The translations under genes and the position numbers were made by a program. The notes beneath the pieces are model-generated. The model was given only the letters and a program-made list of their open reading frames with translations. It had not been told where the DNA came from and ran no database searches. 5,037 nucleotides of DNA. Origin: a virus (lineage: Duplodnaviria; Heunggongvirae; Uroviricota; Caudoviricetes). Positions 427 to 5,037 of this stretch are shown here, one piece after another (the stretch's first letter is position 1; each line of letters begins with the position of its first letter). The stretch lies in the IMG/VR virus record IMGVR_UViG_2740892234_000006. One strand, 5' to 3'.

Positions 427-853
427 TATCCGGCAGGTTCTTGAGCGCTGGGGGGCATGGGCGGCAAATAACTATGAGGATGTTACATGGTCGCCCATTG
501 CTGCCGGATTTAAGGGACTGATCCCCGAAAAAGTAAAATCACGTCCACAGTGCTGTGACGATGATGCGATGGTGATATGCGGGTGCATAGCCCGCCTTTA
601 CCGGAACAATCGCGATCTGCATGACTTGCTGGTTGATTATTACGTGTTGGGGGAGACGTTCATGGCGTTGGCACGGAAACATGGGTGCTCTGACACCTGT
701 ATAGGTAAACGCCTTCACAAAGCGGAGGGGATTGTTGAAGGCATGCTGATGATGCTGGGAGTGAGGCTTGAGATGGATCGGTATGTTGAGCGTGAATTGC
801 CGGGAGGGAGAACCTCTGTATTTTATCAGCGAAAAAATAGTTTACGATCGTAA
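419..853 (+). CDS. Q: Late-gene antitermination protein Q (short, 144-aa type as in phage 21/933W-like lambdoids)
   Basis: ORF track gives 380-853, but 380 is GTG. ATG at 419 overlaps the ninH stop (ATGCGTGA) and gives a 144-aa product [24 protein letters not shown]... with Cys-rich segment [18 protein letters not shown]. Followed by an AT-rich region, terminators and tRNAs as in Stx-phage Q regions. Start could be 380 (GTG); family subtype is from recall. Confidence 0.85.
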
Positions 854-900
854 AAATCTGCATATCATGATAAGAGTGGTTACATTGCCACGCAGTCGAA

Positions 901-923
901 CCCGCCGATGCGCGGGTTTTTTT
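901..923 (+). terminator. Intrinsic terminator-like hairpin 47 nt after the Q stop
   Basis: CCCGC (901-905) / GCGGG (912-916), 6-nt loop, then T7 (917-923). Confidence 0.55.
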
Positions 924-959
924 GTACCCCGAATCCTGTGAGCTATACGGAAAGTACAC

Positions 960-1100
960 AGAAAGGAAGGTGCGACCGTAATTAATAACAAAATCTTAAA
1001 AATCGCATATAGCACTATTAGTTTTCTAAATATTGTATATTTTAAGTATTGCAGGATAACCCTGTAACGAAGTTTGCGTAACAGCATTTTGCTCTACGAG
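960..1100 (+). promoter_or_regulatory. Candidate location of late promoter PR' and Q-utilisation (qut) site; exact -35/-10 not resolved
   Basis: AT-rich intergenic stretch between Q and a strong terminator, holding several weak sigma70-like hexamers (e.g. TTTTCT 1022-1027, TATATT 1036-1041, TAAGTA 1043-1048). In lambdoid phages PR' lies just downstream of Q and yields a short tR'-terminated RNA. Placement is inference. Confidence 0.3.
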
Positions 1101-1103
1101 TTT

Positions 1104-1132
1104 GCCAGCCTCCCCCAGTGGCTGGCTTTTTT
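1104..1132 (+). terminator. Strong intrinsic terminator, candidate tR'
   Basis: Perfect 7-bp stem GCCAGCC (1104-1110) / GGCTGGC (1120-1126), 9-nt loop, T6 (1127-1132). Confidence 0.7.
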
Positions 1133-1140
1133 ATGTCCGT

Positions 1141-1254
1141 AGCGTCAAAGCAGCAATGGCGCTAGGGCGTCGTGCAATTGGCGTTGAGCTGGAGAGCGGG
1201 CGTTTTGAGCAGACGGTCAGGGAAGTTCAGAATGTAGTCAGTCAGAACGGATGA
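1141..1254 (+). pseudogene. Remnant of the C-terminus of a DNA methyltransferase (no start codon)
   Basis: Frame open from 1060 to the TGA at 1252-1254 with no ATG/GTG start. Translation ...SVKAAMALGRRAIGVELESGRFEQTVREVQNVVSQNG* resembles the conserved ...GRRxIGxEL C-terminal motif of N6-A/N4-C DNA methyltransferases. Too short and start-less to be functional. Confidence 0.5.
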
Positions 1255-1256
1255 TA

Positions 1257-1285
1257 TTGCAGAATTAGTTACGTACCGTTATTAT
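1257..1285 (+). promoter_or_regulatory. Candidate sigma70 promoter for the tRNA cluster
   Basis: TTGCAG (1257-1262), 17-nt spacer, TATTAT (1280-1285), then a GC-rich stretch CCTGCGCCC before the mature tRNA 5' end at 1295, as is typical of stable-RNA promoters. Confidence 0.45.
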
Positions 1286-1294
1286 CCTGCGCCC

Positions 1295-1370
1295 GGCCCT
1301 TTAGCTCAGTGGTGAGAGCGAGCGACTCATAATCGCCAGGTCGCTGGTTCAAATCCAGCAAGGGCCACCA
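1295..1370 (+). tRNA. ileZ: tRNA with anticodon CAU, Ile2 (lysidine) type; alternatively elongator Met
   Basis: 76-nt cloverleaf: acceptor GGCCCTT/AAGGGCC, D arm GCTC-AGTGGTGA-GAGC, anticodon loop CTCATAA, T arm GCTGG-TTCAAAT-CCAGC, discriminator A, encoded CCA. Near-identical to E. coli ileX as recalled; an ileZ-like gene is known downstream of Q in Stx phages. Confidence 0.85.
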
Positions 1371-1377
1371 TCACATA

Positions 1378-1454
1378 CCGCCATTAGCTCATCGGGATAG
1401 AGCGTCAGCCTTCGAAGCTGGTTGCGCGGGGTTCGAGTCCTCGATGGCGGTCCA
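1378..1454 (+). tRNA. tRNA-Arg, anticodon UCG (decodes rare CGA/CGG)
   Basis: 77-nt cloverleaf: acceptor CCGCCAT/ATGGCGG (unusual C1-G72), D arm GCTC-ATCGGGATA-GAGC, anticodon stem TCAGC/GCTGG, loop CTTCGAA, T arm CGGGG-TTCGAGT-CCTCG, discriminator T, CCA. Confidence 0.8.
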
Positions 1455-1467
1455 TTATCTGCACACT

Positions 1468-1513
1468 GCGTTGTTAGCTCAGCCGGACAGAGCAATTGCC
1501 TTCTAAGCAATCG
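1468..1513 (+). tRNA. 5' portion of a tRNA-Arg(UCU) copy, cut by the N run
   Basis: GCGTTGT-TA-GCTC-AGCCGGACA-GAGC-A-ATTGC-CTTCTAA-GCAAT-CG then Ns. Identical to the 5' half of the tRNA at 1569-1645 except for one D-loop substitution. Confidence 0.55.
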
Positions 1514-1523
1514 NNNNNNNNNN
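1514..1523. other. Run of 10 N (gap or masked bases) inside a tRNA copy
   Basis: Directly visible; flanks belong to two different tRNA types. Confidence 0.95.
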
Positions 1524-1555
1524 CTGGCGGGGTTCAAGTCCCCGATGGCGGTCCA
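1524..1555 (+). tRNA. 3' portion of an Arg(UCG)-like tRNA copy (T arm and acceptor 3' strand) following the N run
   Basis: CGGGG-TTCAAGT-CCCCG-ATGGCGG-T-CCA. The acceptor 3' strand matches the Arg(UCG) tRNA at 1378-1454, not the 5' fragment before the gap, so the two fragments are from different tRNA types. Confidence 0.5.
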
Positions 1556-1568
1556 TTATCAGCATCAT

Positions 1569-1645
1569 GCGTTGTTAGCTCAGTCGGACAGAGCAATTGC
1601 CTTCTAAGCAATCGGTCACTGGTTCGAATCCAGTACAACGCGCCA
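1569..1645 (+). tRNA. tRNA-Arg, anticodon UCU (decodes rare AGA/AGG)
   Basis: 77-nt cloverleaf: acceptor GCGTTGT/ACAACGC, D arm GCTC-AGTCGGACA-GAGC, anticodon stem ATTGC/GCAAT, loop CTTCTAA, T arm ACTGG-TTCGAAT-CCAGT, discriminator G, CCA. Confidence 0.9.
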
Positions 1646-1659
1646 TATTTATTTACCAG

Positions 1660-1680
1660 GCTCGCTTTTGCGGGCTTTTT
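1660..1680 (+). terminator. Intrinsic terminator closing the tRNA cluster
   Basis: GGCTCGC-TTTT-GCGGGC hairpin (one T.G wobble) followed by T5. Confidence 0.65.
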
Positions 1681-1924
1681 ATTACAGGAAAGACACTGGA
1701 CAGTGAAATGTTAAATGCCTCACAATTCAGGCAGTTGATGATTGTCTGGTTGACGGAGAGTTGTTAAAAAAGTTTTGCATGGTGAATCCCCCTGAGCGGA
1801 GGGGCGACTGGTGACGGTATAATCTCTGATTATCAAAACGAGAATGACGAGGGTTTAGTGGCACCGGGCTGAACTCACCGGGAGGCACCCGGCACCATGC
1901 AATGGCACATAGCGCCACTCTCCA

Positions 1925-1948
1925 GCCCCTCTCCGGAGGGGCTTTCTT
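1925..1948 (+). terminator. Intrinsic terminator-like hairpin inside leader copy 1
   Basis: Perfect 7-bp stem GCCCCTC/GAGGGGC, loop TCCG, then TTTCTT. Directly followed by A6 and a second hairpin GCCCGCG...CGCGGGC (1961-1982), which reads as a terminator on the - strand. Confidence 0.5.
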
Positions 1949-2051
1949 ATGGACAAAAAAGCCCGCGCTGGGAGACGCGGGCGGCAAGGAATAAACAATG
2001 AAACGTGAAGTAATATTTCAGCTGGCGAATAATACCCTATAGTAATCACTC

Positions 2052-2073
2052 TGCGCAACTGCGCGACCTTTTT
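2052..2073 (+). terminator. Weaker terminator-like hairpin with T5 inside leader copy 1
   Basis: TGCGC-AACT-GCGCG stem then TTTTT. Homologous to the stronger copy-2 hairpin at 3979-4004. Confidence 0.4.
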
Positions 2074-2187
2074 CGAATTGCGGGCTGTAGTCTCCCTTCT
2101 GCCATTGTCCTGTAACTTCCGGACTTCAGCCCGCTCCTTATTTTACTCACAATATTATCCCGGCCGGGAGGATTCATGGCATTTAAA

Positions 2188-2197
2188 NNNNNNNNNN
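2188..2197. other. Run of 10 N cutting a DUF1737-type gene after its 4th codon
   Basis: Directly visible; downstream flank is a terminator resembling the one at 1660-1680. Confidence 0.95.
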
Positions 2198-2199
2198 TT

Positions 2200-2224
2200 G
2201 GCTCGCTTTTGCGGGCCTTTTTTT
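2200..2224 (+). terminator. Intrinsic terminator
   Basis: GGCTCGC-TTTT-GCGGGCC (7-bp stem, one wobble) then T7. Nearly the same sequence as the terminator at 1660-1680. Confidence 0.7.
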
Positions 2225-2276
2225 GTATCTGCGTTACACCATTAACTAATAAATCGAGTGCTTATCAGGAGGCTAT

Positions 2277-2501
2277 GTGAAAAAACTGATGGTGACGATT
2301 GGTCCGTTCGAAACAGAAGTTAGTTTTCGTGTTGTTCAGGGGGAGAGTGTACTTGTTGAAGATGTATTTCATGGAAAATCAACAGGTCCTTATGTAAAAG
2401 AATATCTTATCGACGCCACGGATGAAAATATTGAGGTGGTGTACGATTCCGTCAATCACCCTGATTTGATCATTAAGGCAAAATTGAAGCCACTTTATTG
2501 A
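2277..2501 (+). CDS. Hypothetical small acidic protein (74 aa), no recognised family
   Basis: ORF with GTG start 4 nt after AGGAGG (2267-2272); alternative ATG at 2289. Product MKKLMVTIGPFETEVSFRVVQGESVLVEDVFHGK... has about 12 acidic and 8 basic residues. Lies between two intrinsic terminators. Confidence 0.5.
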   Translation: MKKLMVTIGPFETEVSFRVVQGESVLVEDVFHGKSTGPYVKEYLIDATDENIEVVYDSVNHPDLIIKAKLKPLY

Positions 2502-2553
2502 TCTGACCGGGAGCAATCATAAAATATCTCTGGGTACCCACAAGGAGATAAAT

Positions 2554-2763
2554 ATGTTTGTTTCTGAAGTGTTAATGGAAGATAAGGACAACAAAGGATG
2601 GGTTAAAGGTTGGGCTGTGGTAAGAAGCTCGCCCTGGCATCTTGTTGGGGTTTTTGCGACAGAGGAAGACGCAGAAACGGAAGCAAGAAAGATGGGAGAT
2701 AAGTACGAGGTTCACTATGGCTCGCATCGAACAGGAAGTGATGATTTTGTCTGGGGGGAGTAA
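2554..2763 (+). CDS. Hypothetical small acidic Trp-rich protein (69 aa), no recognised family
   Basis: ATG preceded by strong RBS AAGGAG (2542-2547, 6-nt spacing). Product MFVSEVLMEDKDNKGWVKGWAVVRSSPWHLVGVFATEEDAETEARKMGDKYEVHYGSHRTGSDDFVWGE has about 14 acidic and 8 basic residues and 4 Trp. Followed by a terminator at 2798-2820. Confidence 0.6.
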   Translation: MFVSEVLMEDKDNKGWVKGWAVVRSSPWHLVGVFATEEDAETEARKMGDKYEVHYGSHRTGSDDFVWGE

Positions 2764-2797
2764 CAGTCGTTTAACCCCAGAATAATCCCGTAACTGA

Positions 2798-2820
2798 GGT
2801 CGCTATTGGCGGCCTTTTTT
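2798..2820 (+). terminator. Intrinsic terminator
   Basis: GGTCGC-TATTG-GCGGCC (6-bp stem, one wobble) then T6. Followed by GTATCCGCG, similar to the GTATCTGCG linker after the terminator at 2200-2224. Confidence 0.65.
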
Positions 2821-2952
2821 GTATCCGCGCCACGCCCGGCGCATATCAACCACAGAGCCTTTCGGGGGTGAGCTTACGGAGTGGTCAGTGTGACTTTCTC
2901 TGTGGGCAGATCGCTCCCGGGCGTTGGCTCACCCACCCAAAGGAACGTCACG

Positions 2953-3111
2953 ATGTTTGGTATTTTTGGTAAAAAAAGCCCGCAGAGCGGCAACGGAAAT
3001 TAAAAAGTTTGAAAAACGCGATCTGGCACAGGTGGTGATTAACGCCGCCTACCTGGTGGCCTATGCAGATGGTGAATGTGAGGCTTCCTAGAAAGCGAAG
3101 ATCGAACAGGT
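2953..3111 (+). pseudogene. Degenerate partial copy of the TerB-like gene (start codon present, then frameshift and in-frame TAG)
   Basis: ATG 2953 with RBS AAAGGAA gives MFGIFGKKSPQSGNGN* (stop 3001-3003). The following ~120 nt are ~90% identical to 3122-3243 but in a different frame, consistent with an extra A in the A7 run at 2971-2977, and carry TCC TAG (3086-3091) where the downstream copy has TCA GAG. Could also reflect low-quality contig-end sequence. Confidence 0.45.
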
Positions 3112-3121
3112 NNNNNNNNNN
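3112..3121. other. Run of 10 N between two partial copies of the TerB-like gene
   Basis: Directly visible. Confidence 0.95.
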
Positions 3122-3136
3122 GCCCGCCGAGCGGCA

Positions 3137-3535
3137 GTGGAAATTAAAAAGTTTGAGAAACGTGATCTGGCACAGGCGGTTATTAATGCTGCCTATCTGG
3201 TGGCCTATGCAGATGGTGAATGTGAGGCTTCAGAGAAAGCGAAGATCGAGCAGATCTTGCGTAACCAGCCTGCGTTGTCCGCGTTTACGTCAGAAATTAA
3301 TGCGATTAGCGCAACCATTATCGGTCAGCTGGATACGAACTTTAAAATTGGTCGTCGAGCGGCATTGCGTGAAATTGAAGATGTGAAACACGATACGCGT
3401 GAAGCGGAAGATGTGCTGGATGTGGCGGTGGCCATTGCGGAGGCAGACGGCGAAATTGAGCCGGAAGAGCGCAAGGTGCTGGAAGAGATTGCCGGTGTTC
3501 TGGGTCTTCGTCTGGAGAATTACCTGTTACGGTAA
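3137..3535 (+). CDS. TerB-like (tellurite-resistance TerB family) acidic protein; 5' end uncertain because the frame is open back to the N run at 3121
   Basis: ORF ...EIKKFEKRDLAQAVINAAYLVAYADGECEASEKAKIEQIL...AVAIAEADGEIEPEERKVLEEIAGVLGL... contains two A-x-ADGE-x-E repeats typical of TerB-family domains, as recalled. The true N-terminus is probably MFGIFGKK..., as in the upstream degenerate copy. Confidence 0.6.
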   Translation: MEIKKFEKRDLAQAVINAAYLVAYADGECEASEKAKIEQILRNQPALSAFTSEINAISATIIGQLDTNFKIGRRAALREIEDVKHDTREAEDVLDVAVAIAEADGEIEPEERKVLEEIAGVLGLRLENYLLR

Positions 3536-3860
3536 AACTGCGCCTGACTGTGGCTGCACTCCTGCTGTTTCTGGTGGTGATGGTGGATTTCACCAGCAGA
3601 ATCATGTCGGTGCTGGCGGATGGGGTGCTGGTCTGCGGCATTATGGTATTGCTGTGGCCGGTGATAAAAAGAAACAGCCTGCATAATGCTTGATTTTTTT
3701 ATTTGCTGTTTATTAAAAATACTACTGCATGGTGAATCCCCCTGTGCGGTGGGGCAATCAGCAAGAAGGAATATGGGGTAATCGCGGATTCAGGTGCTGA
3801 TACTGAATTCACCGGGAGGCACCCGGCACCATGCAAGAAAAAGAATGTGCATGCAAACAT

Positions 3861-3886
3861 GCCCCTCTCCGGAGGGGCATTTTTTA
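3861..3886 (+). terminator. Intrinsic terminator-like hairpin inside leader copy 2
   Basis: GCCCCTC-TCCG-GAGGGGC then ATTTTTT. Followed by A6 and hairpin GCCCGAA-TGGG-TTCGGGC (3899-3916), which reads as a terminator on the - strand. Confidence 0.55.
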
Positions 3887-3978
3887 TGGGTAAAAAATGC
3901 CCGAATGGGTTCGGGCAATAGCATGAGATACTGATATTGTTGTGTTGTTATCGTGTGGATTTTAACCAGGGTTTATCA

Positions 3979-4004
3979 GGCTGCGCAACTGCGTGGCCTT
4001 TTTT
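3979..4004 (+). terminator. Intrinsic terminator inside leader copy 2
   Basis: GGCTGCGC-AACT-GCGTGGCC (8-bp stem with two G.U wobbles) then T6. Confidence 0.6.
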
Positions 4005-4100
4005 CATTTCTTGGGCTGTAGTCCCCGTGTGTCATTCAGGCTTCCGGACTACAGCCCACTCCATATCTGATTTAATACACTATCCCGGCCGGGAGGAATA

Positions 4101-4155
4101 ATGACATTTAAACATTATGATGTTGTCAGGGCGGCGTCGCCGTCAGACCTTGCGG
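4101..4155 (+). CDS. 5' fragment of a DUF1737-type gene (nanS-p paralogue), cut after 18 codons by the N run
   Basis: RBS GGGAGGA then ATG; MTFKHYDVVRAASPSDLA... matches the N-terminus of the downstream gene (MSIKHYDVIRAASPSDLAEK...). Confidence 0.5.
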
Positions 4156-4165
4156 NNNNNNNNNN
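4156..4165. other. Run of 10 N cutting a DUF1737-type gene after 18 codons
   Basis: Directly visible; the last 29 nt before the gap are identical to 4347-4375 in the downstream nanS-p gene. Confidence 0.95.
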
Positions 4166-4208
4166 ATTTCTGTTTTTCTCAAACTATCATCGTTATCCCT
4201 TTATTTTC

Positions 4209-4235
4209 GGCTGCGCATGGCGCGGCCTTTTTTTT
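4209..4235 (+). terminator. Intrinsic terminator
   Basis: GGCTGCGC-ATG-GCGCGGCC (8-bp stem, one wobble) then T8. Confidence 0.65.
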
Positions 4236-4321
4236 ACGACCAGCCACTGGCAGATGGTCATCCTGTGATTTGATTCCGCTTCCGGCTTTTTAACTCTGTT
4301 CCTCTACACGGGAGAAATTCG

Positions 4322-5037
4322 ATGTCGATTAAACATTACGATGTTATCAGGGCGGCGTCGCCGTCAGACCTTGCGGAAAAGCTGACACACAAACTGAAAG
4401 AGGGCTGGCAGCCATACGGCGGACCGGTTGCCATTACGCCGTACACACTGATGCAGGCGGTGGCTATTGAAGGAGAGCCACAGGTCGGCCCTTCATCTGA
4501 GCCGGATTGGTACTACGTCATCGTACTGGCCGGGCAGTCCAATGCCATGGCTTACGGTGAAGGGCTTCCGCTGCCGGATTCATACGATGCTCCGGATCCG
4601 CGCATTAAACAGCTGGCGCGCCGCAGTACAGTGACGCCGGGCGGGGCTGTCTGCAGATATAACGATATTATTCCGGCTGACCACTGTCTGCATGATGTGC
4701 AGGATATGAGTACGCTGAATCATCCGAGGGCTGACCTGAGCAAAGGGCAGTACGGCTGTGTCGGCCAGGGTTTACATATTGCCAAAAAACTGCTCCCGTA
4801 TATCCCGAATAACGCGGGGATCCTGCTGGTACCATGCTGTCGTGGTGGTTCGGCATTTACCCAGGGCGCGGAGGGGACATTCAGCGAGTCCACGGGGGCC
4901 AGTCAGGATTCGGCACGCTGGGGAGTGGGCAAGCCGTTATATCAGGATCTGATTTCCCGCACAAAAGCGGCATTGCAGAAAAATCCCAAAAACGTTCTGC
5001 TGGCCGTCTGCTGGATGCAGGGTGAGTTTGACATGAG
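4322..5037 (+). CDS. nanS-p: Prophage sialate O-acetylesterase, NanS-p-like (N-terminal DUF1737 domain plus SASA esterase domain); 3' end beyond the window
   Basis: ATG 4322 with RBS GGGAGA. Frame 2 stays open to the window end, which is why it is absent from the ORF track. N-terminus MSIKHYDVIRAASPSDLAEKLTHKLKEGWQPYGGPVAITPYTLMQAVAIEGE is DUF1737-like; the GQSN motif (4532-4543, ...VLAGQSNAMAYGEG...) is the catalytic-serine signature of SASA-family esterases. This gene class sits downstream of stx2 in Stx phages (recall). Confidence 0.8.
   Translation, partial: MSIKHYDVIRAASPSDLAEKLTHKLKEGWQPYGGPVAITPYTLMQAVAIEGEPQVGPSSEPDWYYVIVLAGQSNAMAYGEGLPLPDSYDAPDPRIKQLARRSTVTPGGAVCRYNDIIPADHCLHDVQDMSTLNHPRADLSKGQYGCVGQGLHIAKKLLPYIPNNAGILLVPCCRGGSAFTQGAEGTFSESTGASQDSARWGVGKPLYQDLISRTKAALQKNPKNVLLAVCWMQGEFDM

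Follow-up and report, generated by a model that had tools for sequence, protein, structure and literature searches.

Moron Slots in 933W-Type Prophages

The late region that follows the antiterminator gene Q in lambdoid prophages encoding Shiga toxin (Stx) has been described in several studies. In 933W/Sp5 (AF125520) the order is Q, the pR'-qut-tR' unit, the tRNA genes ileZ, argN and argO, the toxin genes stx2AB, the STnc100 RNA gene at 75 nt 3' of stx2B, the small RNA (sRNA) gene AsxR on the minus strand, and nanS-p (L0105). Tree et al. (2014; PMC4104026, text to Fig. 4C) have reported that moron coding sequences (CDSs) lie 3' of pR', with convergent sRNAs ahead of a conserved open reading frame (ORF). 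This layout was found in Sp5, which carries stx2, and in the stx-negative Sakai prophages Sp3, 4, 9, 10, 11, 15, and 17 (PMC4104026). Sy et al. (2020; PMC7547250) have described StxS_L, a 258-nt leader RNA that is cut by RNase E at GU|AUU, position +173. More recently, Zhu, Shabalina and Storz (2026; bioRxiv 10.64898/2026.05.13.724894) have reported that STnc100/PasD is syntenic with Q and the esterase gene, and PasA/PasC with TerB, in prophages of enteropathogenic and enterohaemorrhagic Escherichia coli (EPEC and EHEC). The product of nanS-p is a sialate O-acetylesterase, and the gene is located 3' of stx and also in non-Stx prophages (PMC10462455). The DNA considered here is a stretch of 5,037 nt (hereafter the window) from the IMG/VR virus record IMGVR_UViG_2740892234_000006, and the feature under study is the interval 853–4321, which runs precisely from the stop of Q to the start of nanS-p.

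This interval very probably represents, in a toxin-free form, the moron slot next to pR' in lambdoid prophages of the 933W family, written as a draft scaffold of several paralogous prophages. Runs of N divide the window into five pieces, p0 (1–1513), p1 (1524–2187), p2 (2198–3111), p3 (3122–4155), and p4 (4166–5037).

Comparison with Described Loci

The left part of the window closely resembles 933W. Positions 1–1513 cover the genes for NinG, NinH, and Q, the promoter pR', the StxS leader, a methylase remnant and the tRNA genes; their identity is 99.1% to 933W and 100% to TL-2011a (JQ011316), a stx-negative phage. Q is accompanied by pR', qut and an intrinsic terminator, the terminator and pT follow in the 933W order, and ileZ, argN, and argO lie between tR' and the cargo, with argO interrupted by the first run of N and a second allele after it. 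The right flank contains, as does the region 3' of stx2B in 933W, an STnc100-family RNA, a convergent anti-sRNA and nanS-p with its DUF1737 and SASA domains (Rfam on the window, 933W, TL-2011a, MFDS1001074, and RM13516; Pfam). An earlier note on this DNA, made from the sequence alone, had likened the order Q, terminators, tRNAs, cargo, and nanS-p to that of a Stx-phage late region lacking the toxin genes, and both parts of that proposal are borne out. A tblastn search of the window with 933W Stx2A and Stx2B gave a best E of 1.6, and the same queries matched perfectly on 933W as a control. Because there is no stxAB in the slot, the window represents a toxin-free relative and not a Stx-converting phage.

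Unlike in 933W, stx2AB is missing, and the slot is either empty or holds TerB-DUF3927 or orf74-orf69-TerB-DUF3927. In the right flank the identity to 933W is no higher than ~75%, and the anti-sRNA there is AgvB or an unnamed variant, not AsxR. In comparison with the moron sites related to Sakai Sp10 and Sp17 (PMC4104026), the layout is as in the window and nothing essential differs; the window adds allelic variants only. As in the groups described by Zhu et al. (2026), an STnc100-family RNA is located 5' of the sialate esterase gene, with TerB, Q and tRNAs nearby.

Empty slots of the same type exist in deposited phage records. The stretch from argO to nanS-p (1646–2187) is 100% identical in all six of TL-2011a, PPwrbA_EH2201, PPwrbA_EC3734, and vB_EcoP_phi296/315/367, and 91% of it matches Lahn2 at 99.8%. 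These empty-slot records are contiguous and are without the orf74, orf69, TerB, DUF3927 and AgvB material that the scaffold adds. The toxin-free cargo slot, its tRNAs, StxS, STnc100/PasD, AgvB and nanS-p have all been described previously (Tree et al., 2014; Sy et al., 2020; Zhu et al., 2026). The suggestion in the earlier note that the locus offers a fresh comparator for moron swapping was therefore not upheld, since the slot is that of Tree et al. (PMC4104026) and empty-slot Stx-type phages were already on deposit.

It is unlikely, though conceivable, that the empty-slot copy (p0 and p1, TL-2011a type) descends from a Stx2 phage by a clean deletion of stx2AB and not from a never-toxigenic lineage. 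The 99.1% identity of the left flank to 933W, covering Q, pR', StxS and the tRNAs, would fit such a loss. So would the right flank, which from ~1706/1720 is 90–92% identical to the sequence directly 3' of stx in VT1-Sakai and in O145-associated Stx2a phages, and losses of stx or of Stx phages have been documented (PMC7175801). However, there is no stx remnant, and the 75% identity of the right flank to 933W does not correspond to a simple 933W deletion. In addition, the empty junction shared at 100% by the six phage records, and with Lahn2 over 91% at 99.8%, fits a stable lineage.

Evidence for a Composite Scaffold

The linear order of the window is, with high probability, a scaffolding artefact that interleaves contigs of paralogous prophages of one genome. 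The four runs of N are each exactly 10 long, and the stretch 5' of each gap recurs 3' of the gap at 87–92% identity. The gaps (no strand) are as follows.

1514–1523, gap 1, 10 N: the flanks re-cover 88 nt of TL-2011a, p0 ending at locus 3013 and p1 restarting at 2926
2188–2197, gap 2, 10 N: a nanS-p start abuts a post-argO terminator; p2 begins at RM13516 locus 2197, the equivalent of window 1657
3112–3121, gap 3, 10 N: the same TerB codons lie on both sides, in two alleles that are 90% identical
4156–4165, gap 4, 10 N: in RM13516, 18 nt separate window 3834 from window 4166

The TL-2011a coordinates of p0 (1501–3013) and p1 (2926–3586) thus overlap by 88 nt, and p2 and p3 present two alleles of identical TerB codons. 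Exact blocks point to different references along the window. Positions 1–1513 and 1585–2187 are 100% identical to TL-2011a, in which the sequence is continuous; positions 1527–1656, 2198–2976, and 3122–3520 are 100% identical to O145:H28 RM13516; and positions 3779–4155 are 100% identical to MFDS1001074. Positions 2977–3111 belong to a TerB pseudogene allele (2850–3111 is 100% identical in E. coli H19), and 4166–5037 is near-identical, mostly in exact blocks, to RM13516 and to IMG/VR contigs of the H19-type TerB allele. As whole pieces, p2 and p3 have maximum identities of 99.1% and 98.9%, respectively, although sub-blocks of each match different references at 100%. Judged by their sequence, the pieces stem from the late regions of three or four paralogous prophages at the least.

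The ends of the pieces also carry marks of assembly. Both p0 and p3 end exactly 30 nt past the last single-nucleotide difference against the following piece, giving 30-nt exact matches between the end of one piece and the inside of the next (1484–1513 with 1585–1614; 4126–4155 with 4347–4376). Such tails are consistent with k−1, as from a de Bruijn graph of k = 31 where paralogous paths converge. Velvet-type scaffolders place 10 N where the estimated gap is <10. ARAGORN calls an 88-nt "tRNA-Arg" at 1468–1555, in which the 5' half of argO is joined through 10 N to the 3' end of an argN allele. This hybrid, the doubled STnc100, the doubled 5' part of TerB and the three nanS-p starts are products of concatenation.

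Among 5,426 complete E. coli genomes, not one has the window order or covers ≥80% of the window at a single place. The best coverage was 74–78%, from simple loci of types A and B (see below). The order was likewise found in none of the fetched IMG/VR contigs, for which ~200 related contigs had been gathered by pattern scans. The allele combination of p1, an RM13516-type head with a TL-2011a-type tail, reached a maximum of 97.4% in the complete genomes and occurred in 0 of 2.9 million IMG/VR contigs; p1 as a natural recombinant was rejected on its absence from both collections. Separate contigs with the same IMG taxon number bear loci of types C, B, and D (e.g., 2526164666, 2526164689, 2778261453, 2648501392, and 2537561944), and therefore one genome can supply all the pieces. 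The earlier note had read the cargo as a mosaic of small genes, a TerB-like gene and leader elements. Sequence reading and annotation place every element that it named at the coordinates it gave, and that part stands; a single contiguous mosaic does not, since several prophage copies are interleaved across the 10-N joins.

Some observations weigh against a composite. The joins were judged on the sequence alone, and of the eight internal piece ends in the window no more than two show the 30-nt signature. Natural recombinants among these modules are common, and p2 could be a genuine recombinant and not a chimeric contig, because its tail is a natural allele that is 100% identical in H19. A metagenome contig also carries tandem STnc100 copies 3' of TerB-DUF3927, and on the evidence of this one contig compound slots do exist.

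Taken further, such observations would make the window a genuine and contiguous locus, in which recombination reiterated the slot to give a hybrid tRNA, a TerB fragment followed by TerB, two STnc100 units and two nanS-p 5' stubs ahead of the intact nanS-p, the Ns being short unsequenced bits. This is very improbable. The high mosaicism of lambdoid late regions, the tandem STnc100 on the single contig IMGVR_UViG_3300014529_000109 and the reality and wide occurrence of the TerB pseudogene allele agree with it, but all four breakpoints fall at exactly 10 N, successive pieces re-cover identical reference coordinates, the reference of the 100% blocks changes at or near the gaps, and two joins bear the 30-nt suffix signature. 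Neither the order (0 of the 5,426 complete genomes, 0 of the fetched IMG/VR contigs) nor the p1 allele combination (nowhere in the searched genomes or IMG/VR) has a counterpart. That the N runs are same-length masks hiding only 10 real bases per site has a negligible probability, since the flanks are not colinear in the references, with backward jumps of 88 nt at gap 1 and 135 nt at gap 3 and another module at gaps 2 and 4, although the description of the genome_contigs collection does mention a few masked stretches shown as N runs.

Simple Loci Underlying the Scaffold

The real loci behind the scaffold each have a simple cargo. They are what is left when mis-incorporated branch tails are removed, and each is attested on finished DNA, as listed here.

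Locus C (TL-2011a): NinG, NinH, Q, pR'/StxS, methylase remnant, ileZ-argN-argO, terminator, STnc100, nanS-p; no cargo CDS
Locus B (O145:H28 RM13516): tRNAs, orf74, orf69, TerB, DUF3927, truncated STnc100, nanS-p
Locus A (MFDS1001074): tRNAs, TerB, DUF3927, STnc100, AgvB (minus strand), nanS-p
Locus D (E. coli H19): like A and B, except that TerB is decayed and Q differs

The left border of the slot is the post-argO terminator (window ~1658–1683), and the right border is the start of the STnc100 module at ~1706–1720, where the similarity to Stx1 and Stx2a phages resumes.

Several further observations were made on these loci. In RM13516 the similarity to the window begins only at 862, and two minus-strand hypothetical genes lie upstream in place of NinG-NinH-Q. 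E. coli H19 has a different Q of 230 aa after RusA. The tRNA/cargo block is thus paired with differing Q alleles or with none. The orf74-orf69 cassette lies between imperfect direct repeats of ~20 nt (2214–2233 and 2810–2829; GGCC-T6/7-GTATC-Y-GCG), which are the tails of two intrinsic terminators. The MFDS1001074-type locus lacks this cassette, and there the upstream region of TerB directly follows the post-argO terminator. The repeat hints at a possible recombination site for cassette exchange. The metagenome contig IMGVR_UViG_3300014529_000109 has two STnc100-family copies in tandem (5801–6007 and 6285–6490) between DUF3927 and nanS-p, and is either a natural compound slot or itself a chimeric contig.

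Annotated Features of the Window

The features outside the gaps are given in order of position.

2–235, plus: NinG, C-terminal part, truncated by the window start (Pfam PF05766, E 2.3e-31; annotated as NinG in MFDS1001074 and two other reference records)
232–426, plus: NinH (Pfam PF06322, E 1.4e-37)
380–853 (RefSeq start 419), plus: antiterminator Q, 933W type (Pfam PF06530, E 1.4e-50; DNA 100% identical to TL-2011a, 99.1% to 933W; annotated in the same three reference records)
841–868, plus: late promoter pR' (promoter scan, TTTACG-16-TATCAT, sigma-70-like; coincides with the 933W pR' feature)
882–889, plus: qut (position carried over from the 933W record, offset 1500)
875–1132, plus: StxS-type terminated late leader, ~258 nt (hairpin 898–919, GUAUU RNase E motif 1046–1050, terminator tR' 1104–1132)
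1141–1254, plus: DNA methyltransferase remnant, C-terminal fragment (pseudogene in RefSeq at the equivalent site of three matching records; PHROG DNA-methyltransferase families, E 2.8e-38)
1257–1285, plus: tRNA promoter pT (933W feature table)
1295–1370, plus: ileZ, anticodon CAT, tRNA-Ile in matching records (ARAGORN, Rfam)
1378–1454, plus: argN (ARAGORN, Rfam, 933W feature table)
1468–1513, plus: argO, 5' 46 nt, the end of p0 (ARAGORN, Rfam, 933W feature table)
1524–1555, plus: second argN allele, 3' part, the start of p1
1569–1645, plus: argO (ARAGORN, Rfam)
1658–1677, plus: post-tRNA (post-argO) terminator
1749–1954, plus: STnc100/PasD-family sRNA gene, copy 1, TL-2011a type (Rfam RF02076, 158.3 bits; gathering score 47)
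1955–2058, minus: candidate convergent sRNA (~1955–2022) with an AgvB/AsxR-type promoter (~2029–2058), both putative
2176–2187, plus: nanS-p start, 12 nt, TL-2011a type, the end of p1 (equals TL-2011a locus 3575–3586, an annotated CDS start)
2200–2217, plus: terminator of the RM13516-type cassette (terminator scan)
2277–2501, plus: orf74, hypothetical protein in RM13516 (PHROG 2571/4280, the orf74/orf69 pair, function unknown)
2554–2763, plus: orf69, hypothetical protein in RM13516 (the same PHROG pair, 2571/4280, function unknown)
2796–2816, plus: terminator of the RM13516-type cassette (terminator scan)
2953–3111, plus: TerB pseudogene allele, 5' part, the end of p2 (extra A at 2971, TAG at 3089)
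3122–3535 (ORF 3137–3535), plus: TerB-family gene, first 8 codons lost to the gap (Pfam PF05099, E 1.7e-13, 51.3 bits vs. gathering 24.4; PHROG 632)
3550–3693, plus: DUF3927 small hydrophobic protein (Pfam PF13064, E 5.7e-16; PHROG 1470, "TciB-like")
3701–3891, plus: STnc100/PasD-family sRNA gene, copy 2, 3' half of MFDS1001074 type (Rfam RF02076, 139.4 bits)
3892–3953, minus: AgvB anti-GcvB sponge sRNA (Rfam RF02702, 96.5 bits vs. gathering 56; consensus match 62/62)
3978–3999, plus: terminator; the minus strand carries the AgvB promoter (terminator scan)
4101–4155, plus: second nanS-p allele, first 55 nt, the end of p3
4166–4321, plus: nanS-p upstream region, RM13516/H19 type, with a terminator at 4209–4227
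4322–5037, plus: nanS-p sialate O-acetylesterase gene, 5' part, DUF1737 and SASA (Pfam PF08410, E 6.6e-16; PF03629, E 1.8e-10; "SASA family carbohydrate esterase" in MFDS1001074 and RM13516)

A search of the window against NCBIfam returned no informative family names.

Small RNAs and the Late Leader

The region from pR' to tR' (~875–1132, ~258 nt) has the sequence characters of StxS. It is 99–100% identical to the 933W-type region, and the motif GUAUU at 1046–1050 falls at +173. The hairpin at 898–919 was found by the terminator scan, and both this hairpin and that at ~1104–1132 are annotated in the 933W record.

The earlier note had named leader elements in the cargo, and these are not leaders of amino-acid operons. 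The match to Phe_leader scored 26.8 bits against a gathering score of 55 and fell within an STnc100 match; it was rejected as noise, as were the other sub-threshold Rfam matches. The elements are instead STnc100 (158 and 139 bits) and AgvB (96.5 bits). Both STnc100 matches are full-length (model positions 1–206) and exceed the gathering score. The position of copy 1 matches that in TL-2011a, and that in 933W, where the gene is downstream of stx2B. RNAs of the STnc100/PasD type are prophage sRNAs without an assigned function that are expressed and associate with Hfq (Zhu et al., 2026; PMC12370729).

The AgvB match is above its gathering score, agrees with the consensus at 62 of 62 positions, and occupies a site shared with MFDS1001074. 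Tree et al. (2014; PMC4104026) have shown that AgvB is transcribed separately, binds Hfq and acts as a sponge of GcvB; it binds the GcvB seed, relieves repression of dppA and aids growth in bovine rectal mucus. A possible GcvB mimic on the plus strand at 4056–4234 (28.1 bits vs. gathering 42) was discarded because it spans the 10-N gap at 4156–4165 and arises from the join itself.

On the minus strand, the candidate at 1955–2058 has the promoter conserved in AgvB and AsxR (−35 TTGCGC, 18-nt spacer, −10 TATTAT). Its body of ~68 nt (~1955–2022) is unrelated to AgvB and AsxR, has its own terminator (1982–1961) and gave a fold z-score of −3.3; the Rfam search of the window assigned it to no family. 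The unit may correspond to an EcOnc RNA that Tree et al. left unnamed, or to a sponge not yet characterised. Because the AgvB/AsxR promoter is kept while the body is unrelated and the terminator is its own, it is possibly a third sponge or sRNA. A more general proposal, which we regard as tentative and rather doubtful, is that the right border of the slot is a conserved promoter and terminator socket with interchangeable anti-sRNA bodies, the TL-2011a-type copy being a third sponge or sRNA with a different target.

The TerB-DUF3927 Cargo

The TerB domain exceeds the gathering score of PF05099, and PHROGs places both TerB (PHROG 632, "tellurite resistance") and DUF3927 ("TciB-like") in "moron" families. 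A simple promoter scan revealed no evident promoter belonging to TerB-DUF3927, and because of this the pair is probably expressed mainly by Q read-through. The predicted products, a cytoplasmic protein of TerB fold and a small membrane protein of two helices, are probably paired and may act as a module for lysogenic conversion or for envelope stress or exclusion.

The TerB allele in p2 contains a homopolymer frameshift (A7 for A6 at 2971) and an in-frame TAG at 3089. The 41-mer bearing the TAG was found in 89 IMG/VR contigs, and the A7 frameshift was present in 30 of the 31 TAG-allele contigs with a locatable gene start. In E. coli H19 the TerB gene (4108–4536 of the H19 stretch compared) is marked "internal stop" in RefSeq. 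The A7/TAG allele is a widespread and stably inherited pseudogene.

Proposed Operation of the Locus

The steps below are taken from the literature on 933W/Sp5 and carried over by sequence identity. In the lysogen, pR' would be constitutive and the polymerase would halt at tR', giving the StxS-type RNA (PMC7547250), while the tRNAs would be transcribed from their own promoter pT. The STnc100/PasD-type and AgvB-type sRNAs would be separate Hfq-binding transcripts, AgvB acting as a sponge of GcvB. On induction, Q would load at qut and the polymerase would pass all plus-strand terminators. The slot cargo, which is stx2AB in 933W and TerB-DUF3927 here, would then be co-transcribed with nanS-p and the lysis genes.

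Significance

Little new biology is contained in the window, as the real architecture has already been published and the mosaic cargo is not real. The case cautions that in draft scaffolds of EHEC- and EPEC-like genomes, segments of paralogous prophages can be stacked into pseudo-loci resembling exotic mosaics, and runs of exactly 10 N between diverged repeats are to be read as joins and not as sequence. The comparison that survives illustrates how cassettes are exchanged in the interval from the post-argO terminator to STnc100, where the slot is empty (TL-2011a) or contains TerB-DUF3927, orf74-orf69-TerB-DUF3927, or stx2AB (933W).

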